Source: a virus
Taxonomy: Duplodnaviria > Heunggongvirae > Uroviricota > Caudoviricetes
Virus record (IMG/VR): IMGVR_UViG_2526164604_000038
DNA length: 31,803 nucleotides
Strand: one strand, 5' to 3'
Part shown: positions 1 to 3,000 of the stretch, piece after piece
Numbering within the stretch: position 1 is the stretch's first letter
Layout: each line of letters starts with the position of its first letter
Program-made: the position numbers

Positions 1-3000
1 ATGGACAACGACAAAATTGATCAACACAGCGACGAAATTGAAGTTGAGAGCGAAGAAAAAGAGCGTGGCAAAAAAATAGAAATAGATGAAGATCGACTCC
101 CCTCCCGGGCGATGGCAATTCATGAGCATATCCGCCAGGATGGTGAAAAAGAGCTGGAACGCGACGCAATGGCACTACTGTGGTCAGCCATTGCGGCGGG
201 TCTGTCGATGGGCGCTTCATTACTGGCAAAAGGGATATTTCATGTCGAACTGGAAGGTGTGCCGGGCAGCTTCTTGCTGGAGAATCTCGGTTATACCTTT
301 GGTTTTATTATCGTCATTATGGCCCGCCAGCAATTATTTACCGAAAACACCGTGACTGCGGTACTACCCGTCATGCAAAAACCGACAATGAGCAACGTTG
401 GCTTACTTATGCGGTTATGGGGCGTCGTGCTGCTGGGTAATATTCTCGGGACAGGTATTGCGGCGTGGGCATTTGAATATATGCCAATCTTCAATGAAGA
501 AACTCGCGATGCATTTGTCAAAATCGGCATGGATGTGATGAAGAACACCCCCAGCGAGATGTTTGCCAACGCGATCATTTCCGGCTGGCTGATCGCCACT
601 ATGGTATGGATGTTTCCTGCAGCGGGTGCGGCAAAGATTGTGGTGATTATATTGATGACCTGGCTTATTGCCCTGGGTGACACCACTCACATCGTTGTCG
701 GTTCTGTTGAAATCCTCTATCTGGTGTTTAACGGTACGCTGCACTGGAGCGATTTCATCTGGCCCTTCGCACTACCTACTTTAGCGGGGAACATCTGCGG
801 CGGCACCTTTATCTTCGCGTTAATGAGTCATGCACAGATCCGTAACGACATGAGCAACAAGCGCAAAGCAGAAGCACGCCAAAAAGCAGAACGTGCGGAA
901 AACATTAAGAAAAATGATAAAAACCCGGCATAAATGGCGAGGGTTTAAGCAATCGAGCGGCAGCGTACTTACCCCGCAGTCCATTAGCGGGTATACTCAT
1001 GCCGCATTGTCCTCTTAGTTAAATGGATATAATGAATATAAGTATTAACTCATTGATTTAAATACAGAAAGCACCAAAATAATCGTCATATCCGTACCCA
1101 TTTATGTACACATCCCGTTAAGCATGCCCCGCACTTCCGTACGGGGCATGTTCTTTACTCCACTCCCACTTTTTTGTTGTACTCGCGGTTAAACCGATCC
1201 ACGGCAATTTTCATATCCCGCTCAACCGATTTCACCATCGCCGACTGTTGCGCCAGACTGAGAGTACTGTCGGCGTAAATGGCATCACGCTGTTTACGCA
1301 AATCCTTCAGTCTCTTCCGGGTATCCTGCATAAGCCCGTTCATCGACAATTTTCCGTTGTTCTCGTCAATGAACGCCGTTCTTTCTGCACCGGTCAGACT
1401 CTTCAGCTCTGCGTGATACTGCGCAACCTCTGTCATCCGGTCGTACATCTTCTGCTGGTCAGCATACGGCATCACCTCACCTGAAATTTTCCCCAGGAAG
1501 GGCACCTGCTGCTCCGGTATATCAATACCATTCAGCGATTTCACCGCCGCATCCGTGGTTTTGGAAATGAAGCGCCCTGTCCCTCCGGAGATATAGTCCA
1601 CCCAGTATTTCAGCGATTCCGGTGTGATATCCACCGCGCCGGGACGGTACTGGCTGCCACCAGAGAACGCATTCAGCCAGGATGCAAACGCCTTGTACGC
1701 TTCTGGCGTTGAACGTCTTCCCAGCTGGCTGTCAGGTTTTGGTGTACCAAACGGCATGTTCTCCTGGTAAATCTGCGCCCCCATGAAGTTTTCATTCATG
1801 GCAAGGTTCGCAAACGGACGCAGAATGGTCGGCGCTGCATTTTTCAGCAATGCCCCGGACAGTGTTTCCGACGTCTCACTGCCAATCGGGCTGAATGCAC
1901 CAAGCACACCACCAACAACATTACCGGCAGCACGGGACGCCGTCAGGTCACCCGCCGCCACACCTTCAGCAGTATGCCCGAGCAGGAAGAAAACGTTGTA
2001 CCCGTAAGGCAGAGGAATACTCCAGTACTCTCCGGCCTTGCCCCCGAACACCGATTTCATAATGACGAGGTTACGCTCTTTCACATGAGACGGCACCTTA
2101 TCATACCAGTTAACCCCGTCATCATTCTCACCCGCCACGCTGCGGTTAAGCGAGCCAAGCAGATAACCTGCTCCCACAGCGGCAAGCGCGATTTTCTGCG
2201 GAACATTCAGATTCTTCCAGCGAAGGCGCTCCAGTAAAGGTCCCTCACCATTAAGATGTCCGAGCGTTCTCACCAGATTTGCCGTTCCCTGAATGCTGGC
2301 GTTGGCGAACATGTACAGCGAATTCATCAGCGCCCCCTGCTCACCACGACGGTTAAAGTTCACCGTCATGTTTTTGGCAAGAGACGCCGCCTGCTGGCGT
2401 GACAAACCGGCATCACGGGCGTGCTTATAGGCAGAAAGACGCAGAGCGTTTTCAACCGCACCGTTGGCATCCTCGACAAGGTTAAGGAACGAATTCCATG
2501 CACCGATACTCTGGCCTTTCCATCCCCCCTTCGCCAGTGAGACAAGGCGATCCATTTCCTTCTGCTGGCCTTCAAGGTCACCCATGTTAAACCAGCCGGT
2601 TTTCCCTCCGTCCTCAACAAACTCTTTCCACACCTTCTGCCACTGTGCACCTTTTCCCGTGAGGGTTTTACCACGCAGACTGGCGTATACGGCTGACATG
2701 GCAGAACGGCTGTCTTTCACCACAGCCAGGGCGGATAAGTTATCCAGCCCTTTCAGTTTACCGTCGCTCCTTCCCTGCTCCGCCTTCAGGTTCATCACCG
2801 CCGTCTGCACGTCACGGATGAAGTTACTGACCAGGAATTCCGGGTTATACGACGTGTTCACCGTTGCCAGGAAGCGGTTAACTTTCCCCAGCGTGCGGAT
2901 TACGGCGTTACTGGTTTCCGGTCCCATATTCTTCATCGCACGCATCAGGCGCGGGTCATGGAGTTTGATGTAGTACGTTTTGCCGTTCTTTTTGGTGGTG

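Follow-up and report, generated by a model that had tools for sequence, protein, structure and literature searches.

The first 24 nucleotides of argW at the left junction of a phi24B-type Stx2a prophage

Described integration systems at tRNA genes and at argW

Where tyrosine integrases use tRNA genes, the duplicated part of the tRNA is commonly the 3' part (the "3' rule"), and a survey by Williams from 2002 is said to have described the 3' end, the anticodon loop and the T loop as the sublocations at which integration occurs. Elements associated with dusA re-supply the 5' end of that gene. One report on dusA-associated integrases describes elements that integrate within the 5' end of their host gene (PMC4482086); unlike at the locus described here, these elements enter a protein-coding gene and use integrases of another family. 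A precedent for integration at the 5' end of a tRNA gene is set by the pelagiphages HTVC021P/022P/121P/201P. Their target is the 5' end of tRNA-Cys, and a phage-borne 5' fragment, sometimes with a base change in the phage-derived part, completes the tRNA (bioRxiv 10.1101/410191). That report contains no promoter analysis, and Mageeney (2020) does not discuss 5' use of tRNA genes.

For phage phi24B, Int-dependent recombination between attP and attB has been shown experimentally (Fogg 2011, PMC3064807; Mohaisen 2020, PMC7581858). The same work places a crossover site of 24 bp at the centre, gives 427 bp as the minimal attP tested, and describes a separate excisionase and an int gene that is "inverted" relative to that of lambda. 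The minimal attB of phi24B spans 93 bp and consists of a 49-bp B arm, the 24-bp core and a 20-bp B' arm (PMC7581858). The words tRNA and argW do not occur in these two papers. Genomic studies of STEC, on the other side, treat argW as a standard site of Stx2a phages with the core undescribed (PMC8309913, PMC8065619, PMC6580645), and phage phiPA8 lysogenises MG1655 at argW (PMC6580645). The gene is among the standard insertion sites used for typing Stx2a prophages in E. coli O157.

The window, by which we mean the whole 31,803-nt stretch of DNA analysed here (IMGVR_UViG_2526164604_000038), contains the sequence GTCCTCTTAGTTAAATGGATATAA, identical to nt 1-24 of K-12 argW (L004 1110-1133). This segment is, very probably, the attL core of an Stx2a-converting, phi24B-type short-tailed prophage integrated in argW. 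Over positions 700-1400 and 8000-31803 the window is 100% identical to the genome of E. coli O157:H7 F6667 (NZ_CP038366.1), and we took the far end of the prophage, which lies outside the window's own record, from this genome on the strength of the identity over the stretches compared. The F6667 integrase carries an N-terminal Arm-DNA-bind_3 domain (PF13356) and a C-terminal Phage_integrase domain (PF00589), both above the curated cut-offs, and belongs to the P4-type integrase family. It is identical to the phi24B integrase at 387 of 389 residues; with phi24B, the P arm shares 99.7% identity across 302 nt, the cores do not differ, and the experimentally determined crossover site of phi24B matches the repeat found here. 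As in phi24B, int is transcribed away from the att site. The integration system is thus that of phi24B in another Stx2a phage, with no substantive difference, and both site and integrase were already known. The junction is a routine attL, a rediscovery of a described site that leaves pathogen biology unchanged. What it adds is a link between two literatures, in that the 24-bp crossover site of phi24B is the first 24 nt of argW; the exact 24-mer had no match in the literature that we searched.

The same tRNA gene serves the P4-type integrase IntS of CPS-53/KplE1, which acts at its 3' end. IntS shares with the integrase described here the Arm-DNA-bind_3 and Phage_integrase domains, an att site just upstream of the int start and a tRNA restored by an element-borne fragment, while significant similarity between the two proteins is confined to the N-terminal arm-binding region (27 of 93 residues identical). 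Unlike at the IntS site, the tRNA here is directed away from int, and what is duplicated is its first 24 nt, not its 3' end. The likeness to the pelagiphages lies in a core that overlaps the 5' end of the tRNA; host phylum, tRNA and gene arrangement are different, the pelagiphage attP lying downstream of int. In the F6667 record (1542384-1545142), argW is flanked by a phi24B-type int upstream and a CPS-53-like intS downstream, and it lies between both integrases in O157 genomes. A single 75-nt gene therefore offers two independent att sites, nt 1-24 for the phi24B-type integrase and the 3' end for IntS.

The att core and the four attachment sites

The preliminary description had read the junction as intact host sequence (yfdC, then the first 24 nt of argW) followed by phage DNA, and our analysis bears this out (Table 1). 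The match to the K-12 gene is exact and is the only one across the window with up to three mismatches tolerated, and 100 shuffles gave no match. The gap between yfdC and the tRNA is 75 nt, with one base different from K-12, and phage sequence begins at 1033. The view that the window holds no complete tRNA was likewise correct: ARAGORN detected no tRNA gene in it, a search across the window for the 3' part of argW found none, and the sole Rfam match at the gathering threshold in the whole window was an IS3-type frameshift pseudoknot (11273-11389). The argW sequence had also been described as intact up to the D-arm; the 24-nt extent is right, but the match passes through the D-arm and does not halt before it. 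The core covers the 5' strand of the acceptor stem (nt 1-7), nt 8-9, the 5' strand of the D-stem (GTTA, nt 10-13) and the D-loop (nt 14-21), and ends with three of the four bases of the D-stem 3' strand (nt 22-24).

Table 1. Coordinates of features in the 31,803-nt window
Feature	Position	Strand	Basis or remark
yfdC, host gene beside the att site	1-933	+	310-aa ORF; annotated as yfdC in K-12 and in all matching RefSeq genomes
attL B arm, native argW upstream region	960-1008	+	Identical to K-12 except for one base
24-bp att core, attL copy (argW nt 1-24)	1009-1032	+	Exact, unique match
P' arm of the phage attachment site	1033-1154	.	Contiguous with core and P arm in free phages
Strong hairpin between the att site and the end of the last late gene	1121-1152	.	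-21.1 kcal/mol, z = -4.9 against shuffles
Giant LPD38-domain ORF, 2,807 aa, last gene at the late end	1155-9578	-	ORF list; RefSeq annotation of identical sequence
IS629-like IS3-family element, 1,310 bp	10415-11724	-	TGAACCGCCCCGG termini; side observation

On the phage side, the LPD38 ORF is followed by tail, capsid, portal and terminase genes of a 933W/phi24B-like short-tailed Stx phage. The remainder of the prophage in F6667 comprises stx2a, a lambdoid early region and, at the far end, the tyrosine integrase gene. The window stops inside bor, a gene for a serum-resistance lipoprotein (31510-31803, + strand), so that, attL excepted, the prophage ends outside the window or at its very edge. 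Just upstream of stx2A, also outside the window (L003 37831-38082), the same prophage carries three tRNA genes with the anticodons CAT, TCG and TCT according to ARAGORN, the first annotated as tRNA-Ile in RefSeq. As none of them has the anticodon CCT, that of argW is not replaced by the phage.

An intact 75-nt tRNA-Arg(CCT) gene is present in F6667 at 195 bp from the start of int and about 60 kb from attL. It is transcribed away from int and is identical in sequence to K-12 argW (L003 15704-15778, with the attR copy of the core at L003 15755-15778). In the orientation of the window, the attR junction reads ...cgcaacaac, then GTCCTCTTAGTTAAATGGATATAA, then cgagcccc.... We aligned this attR with the attL of the window, the attB of K-12 and the attP of the free phage P27. 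The left flank of attL equals that of attB and the left flank of attR that of attP, whereas on the right attR equals attB and attL equals attP; the block common to all four is exactly 24 bp. An attP joined in silico from both prophage ends is found as a contiguous sequence in 12 phage records, including P27, phi345, phage 86 and Lyz12581Vzw, and a contiguous attP also occurs in the genome of a Proteus virion. GenBank entries, LC645409 among them, already carry the annotation of a 24-bp "duplication due to insertion". A core directly repeated at both ends, with arms that swap exactly at the core, corresponds to site-specific integration of the Campbell type, and a tyrosine recombinase gene adjoins one of the att sites (389-aa Int, 195 bp from attR). 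The site does not fall into the 3'-end, anticodon-loop or T-loop classes of tRNA integration, because the identity block is nt 1-24 and the displaced fragment is the 5' part. Nor does it represent regulated gene integrity, in which the target is inactive while the element is integrated, since tRNA-Arg(CCT) is intact at attR.

Integration very probably proceeds as follows. The P4-type integrase recombines the phage attP with the chromosomal attB across the 24-bp core, splitting argW upon integration because the phage carries the 5' segment of the gene. Host nt 1-24 and the native promoter remain beside yfdC as a dead-end fragment, and a complete argW is formed at the far end from the phage-borne 5' segment and host nt 25-75. 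Such a 5'-end strategy mirrors the usual 3'-end strategy at tRNA genes. For a junction this early in the gene, the preliminary description had proposed three options: a crossover in the 5' part with the intact tRNA rebuilt at the far end, a phage-borne copy of the segment, or a damaged tRNA. The intact tRNA-Arg(CCU) gene beside the F6667 integrase agrees with rebuilding, and the presence of the 24 bp in the contiguous attP of free phages agrees with a phage-borne copy, which is the mechanism behind the rebuilding; damage to the tRNA is contradicted by a rebuilt gene identical to K-12 argW. Both places where an answer had been expected gave one: the other prophage end holds the remainder of argW and the repeat of the 24 nt (in F6667), and in the alignment with the empty argW locus of K-12 the arms switch exactly at the core borders. 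A complete argW does exist elsewhere, but the 24-mer lies at the true junction and is not a coincidental copy far from the att site.

Range of the integrase clade and position of the crossover

The attL junction is present, in identical form, in 209 of 5,426 complete E. coli genomes of several serotypes, and the attR junction (P arm plus intact, annotated tRNA-Arg) likewise occurs in 209 of the 5,426. A second, unrelated type of prophage, with an integrase 84% identical, occupies the same site in a further 26 genomes. Beyond E. coli, homologues of the phi24B-type integrase are widespread in Enterobacterales. We recovered 79 loci in a profile-based scan with one genome per species. Of the 25 loci that encode relatives with at least 66% identity and have enough upstream flank, 24 carry a tRNA-Arg(CCT) gene some 195 bp upstream of int; this gene is divergent from int and turns its 5' end towards it. 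The remaining locus is an attP form (a contig of Erwinia typographi). Thus, 5'-end use of argW is a property of the whole integrase clade, the displaced 5' tRNA fragments having been verified in E. coli only. In the loci of relatives at or below 64% identity, no tRNA was found within 2.5 kb.

The clade is carried by short-tailed Stx phages, a siphovirus, a P22-like Proteus phage and Klebsiella phages of 39.5 kb. We found no report of clade-wide 5'-end use of tRNA-Arg(CCU) in a literature search of limited coverage, which did not include Fogg (2007) and Williams (2002). Tools that seek only displaced 3' tRNA fragments would mis-map such elements. A sister clade of integrases at about 50-57% identity (L035-L049, H128-H135) includes those of mEp234, HK544, the Stx2 phage 1717 and Stx2c phages; none of these has a tRNA within 2.5 kb of int, which points to a different target. 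Integrase loci of enterobacterial type were also seen in records labelled Martelella alba, Pararhizobium (a MAG), Chryseobacterium sp. and Psychrobacter sp. (L013, L024, L052 and L066), and L013 has an enterobacterial-type tRNA-Arg(CCT) as well. These four loci probably represent contamination or mislabelled assemblies.

The position of strand exchange can be narrowed by comparing attPs of the clade. In 733R5 (vB_EcoS-733R5, ON470608), the second type of prophage at this site, attL keeps the E. coli T at tRNA position 5 while the rebuilt tRNA at attR has C5, so that at least nt 1-5 are derived from the phage and the exchange took place 3' of nt 5. C5 is the GTCCCCT type, found in 10 of 18 other aligned taxa, including Enterobacter and Salmonella; with it, a C-G pair takes the place of the T5-G67 wobble pair, and the tRNA is still recognised by ARAGORN. 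This base change parallels those in the phage-derived part of the pelagiphage tRNA-Cys. The block of identity between attP and tRNA covers nt 1-24 in the Stx phage, nt 1-27 with a single mismatch at nt 5 in 733R5, nt 1-25 in the Proteus virion phage Brookers compared with the P. penneri tRNA gene, and nt 1-23 in the attP-form contig of Erwinia typographi. Should the P. mirabilis gene have G at nt 26, the Brookers block would extend to nt 28. Together, the overlapping blocks of the four attPs and nt 5 of 733R5 place strand exchange within nt 6-23. By analogy with the anticodon-loop and T-loop sites, it probably takes place in the D-loop, between the stem halves GTTA and TAAC; on att sites in D-loops, the literature search yielded nothing beyond loosely related papers.

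Two of the records call for comment. ON470608 was deposited as a phage genome and is a prophage with host flanks (yfdC, csc genes), so its attP is not that of a virion; these flanks are what allowed T5 to be compared with C5. A retron-type reverse transcriptase lies near its attL end (ON470608.1, L091 4333-5817). In the Klebsiella phage record OK490433, the sequence has been cut precisely at the core, and it gave no comparison of attL with attR.

Upstream sequences of the rebuilt argW and the arms of the att site

In the native argW upstream region, now at attL, a -10-like TATACT (992-997) is followed by a GC-rich GCCGC (1001-1005), with 11 nt to the tRNA start. We read these as the putative native promoter of argW, which a generic promoter scan did not call. 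The four-way alignment shows that the rebuilt gene is preceded entirely by phage DNA, and since the native upstream region is left at attL, the rebuilt argW is without its native promoter. In contrast to 3'-end integrases, an element that duplicates the 5' part must replace the promoter and not the terminator. We aligned 19 P arms of different genera, with a mean column identity of 70%. Among the columns without variation in the stretch from int to the tRNA are TTG and, at 18-nt spacing, TA...T; a regular-expression check recovered TTGnnn-18 nt-TAnnnT in 18 of the 19 P arms, and the pattern is also present in the Proteus virion phage and the Klebsiella records. From the -10 element to tRNA +1 the distance is 39 nt (38 in one P arm), while spacer and leader vary in sequence. 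This conserved motif probably represents a sigma-70 replacement promoter supplied by the element; the rebuilt argW transcript would then start with a leader of about 32 nt, to be removed by RNase P. The TTG and TAnnnT positions could instead be binding sites of Int or IHF.

A promoter scan of the P arm returned two hits against 0.9 expected from shuffles, which does not stand out from the random background. On the opposite strand, a promoter-like match was considered and rejected, as it is not conserved among the aligned P arms. No description of the conserved promoter-like element was found in the literature, within the limited coverage of our search.

In the 18 phage late ORFs (window 1155-31101, minus strand), AGG occurs at 4.45 and AGA at 6.26 per 1,000 codons. 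Both values are probably above the level in E. coli genes, and if this holds for AGG, the phage would have an interest in keeping argW active. We consider it possible, though unlikely, that the int-attP module is a conserved "promoter-swap" cassette for tRNA-Arg(CCU) that replaces the native promoter and also yields a short chimeric attL RNA; the searched literature holds no report of such a swap. Were it true, a native promoter whose GC-rich discriminator has the look of stringent control would give way to an element-borne sigma-70 promoter, and a rare AGG-decoding tRNA would come under phage-chosen control, possibly to the benefit of AGG-rich phage genes. The native promoter left at attL would then give an RNA in which the tRNA 5' fragment is joined to the P' arm; this RNA would head for the 3' end of the last late gene, which is transcribed convergently, and stop at the hairpin at 1121-1152.

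Several observations could be taken to mean that the prophage inactivates argW, leaving it truncated after nt 24 with no functional copy: no tRNA is detectable in the window, the phage carries tRNA genes of its own, and tRNA-Arg(CCU) is dispensable since argU also reads AGG. We regard this as very improbable, given that the integrase end of F6667 has an intact argW identical to the K-12 gene and that attR with an annotated intact tRNA-Arg is as frequent as attL. Moreover, the identity block begins exactly at tRNA nt +1, which is expected only under selection for restoration of the gene. An even smaller probability attaches to the view that the 24-mer is not the true att site but a partial duplication, arisen by chance or secondarily, or what an IS-mediated or deletion rearrangement left behind. 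Chance cannot easily account for flanks that switch exactly at the 24-bp borders in attL, attR, attB and attP, for the same attP lying contiguous in free phage genomes, or for an identical junction in 209 genomes of several serotypes with no shuffle match, even though an IS629-like element is present in the same prophage and rearrangements are common in Stx prophages.

Only one competing reading carries real weight, namely that argW, although structurally restored, is silenced or strongly down-regulated, the phage arm having no working promoter. The whole native upstream region does stay at attL, and the tRNA goes unmentioned in the phi24B papers (PMC3064807, PMC7581858). We nevertheless hold poor expression of the rebuilt gene to be rather doubtful. 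The sigma-70-like -35/-10 pair keeps a fixed 18-nt spacing and a fixed distance to the tRNA in 18 of 19 diverged P arms, the promoter-like match on the opposite strand lacks such conservation, and silencing would not suit a phage with late-gene AGG use at the level given above. A rebuilt argW served by a promoter in the phage arm is the reading that we prefer.

At attL, the B arm faces into the prophage after integration instead of into the body of the tRNA. The hairpin in the P' arm is followed by UUCUUU on the + strand and sits immediately beyond the stop codon of the convergently oriented LPD38 gene; speculatively, judging from its sequence and position, it is a candidate terminator for transcription from the stranded native argW promoter. 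Another feature of the P' arm is TGTACAC at 1105-1111. The P arm contains three copies of the pattern TGTACnC, at -183, -159 and -148 relative to the core (L003 about 15920-15965), the P' side has two, at +96 and +169 (1105-1111 and 1178-1184), and the pattern recurs in the P and P' arms of the Proteus, Klebsiella and Erwinia elements. These copies may be arm-type binding sites of the integrase, as predicted from their recurrence; the one at +169, inside the LPD38 ORF, may be due to chance.

Within the late region, the IS629-like element contains two ORFs (11344-11670 and 10457-11347) and the ALIL frameshift pseudoknot at 11273-11389. It is associated with a target duplication of about 3 bp and splits a phage ORF into 9609-10385 and 11696-12187, an ORF that is intact (421 aa) in strain 2013C-4465.
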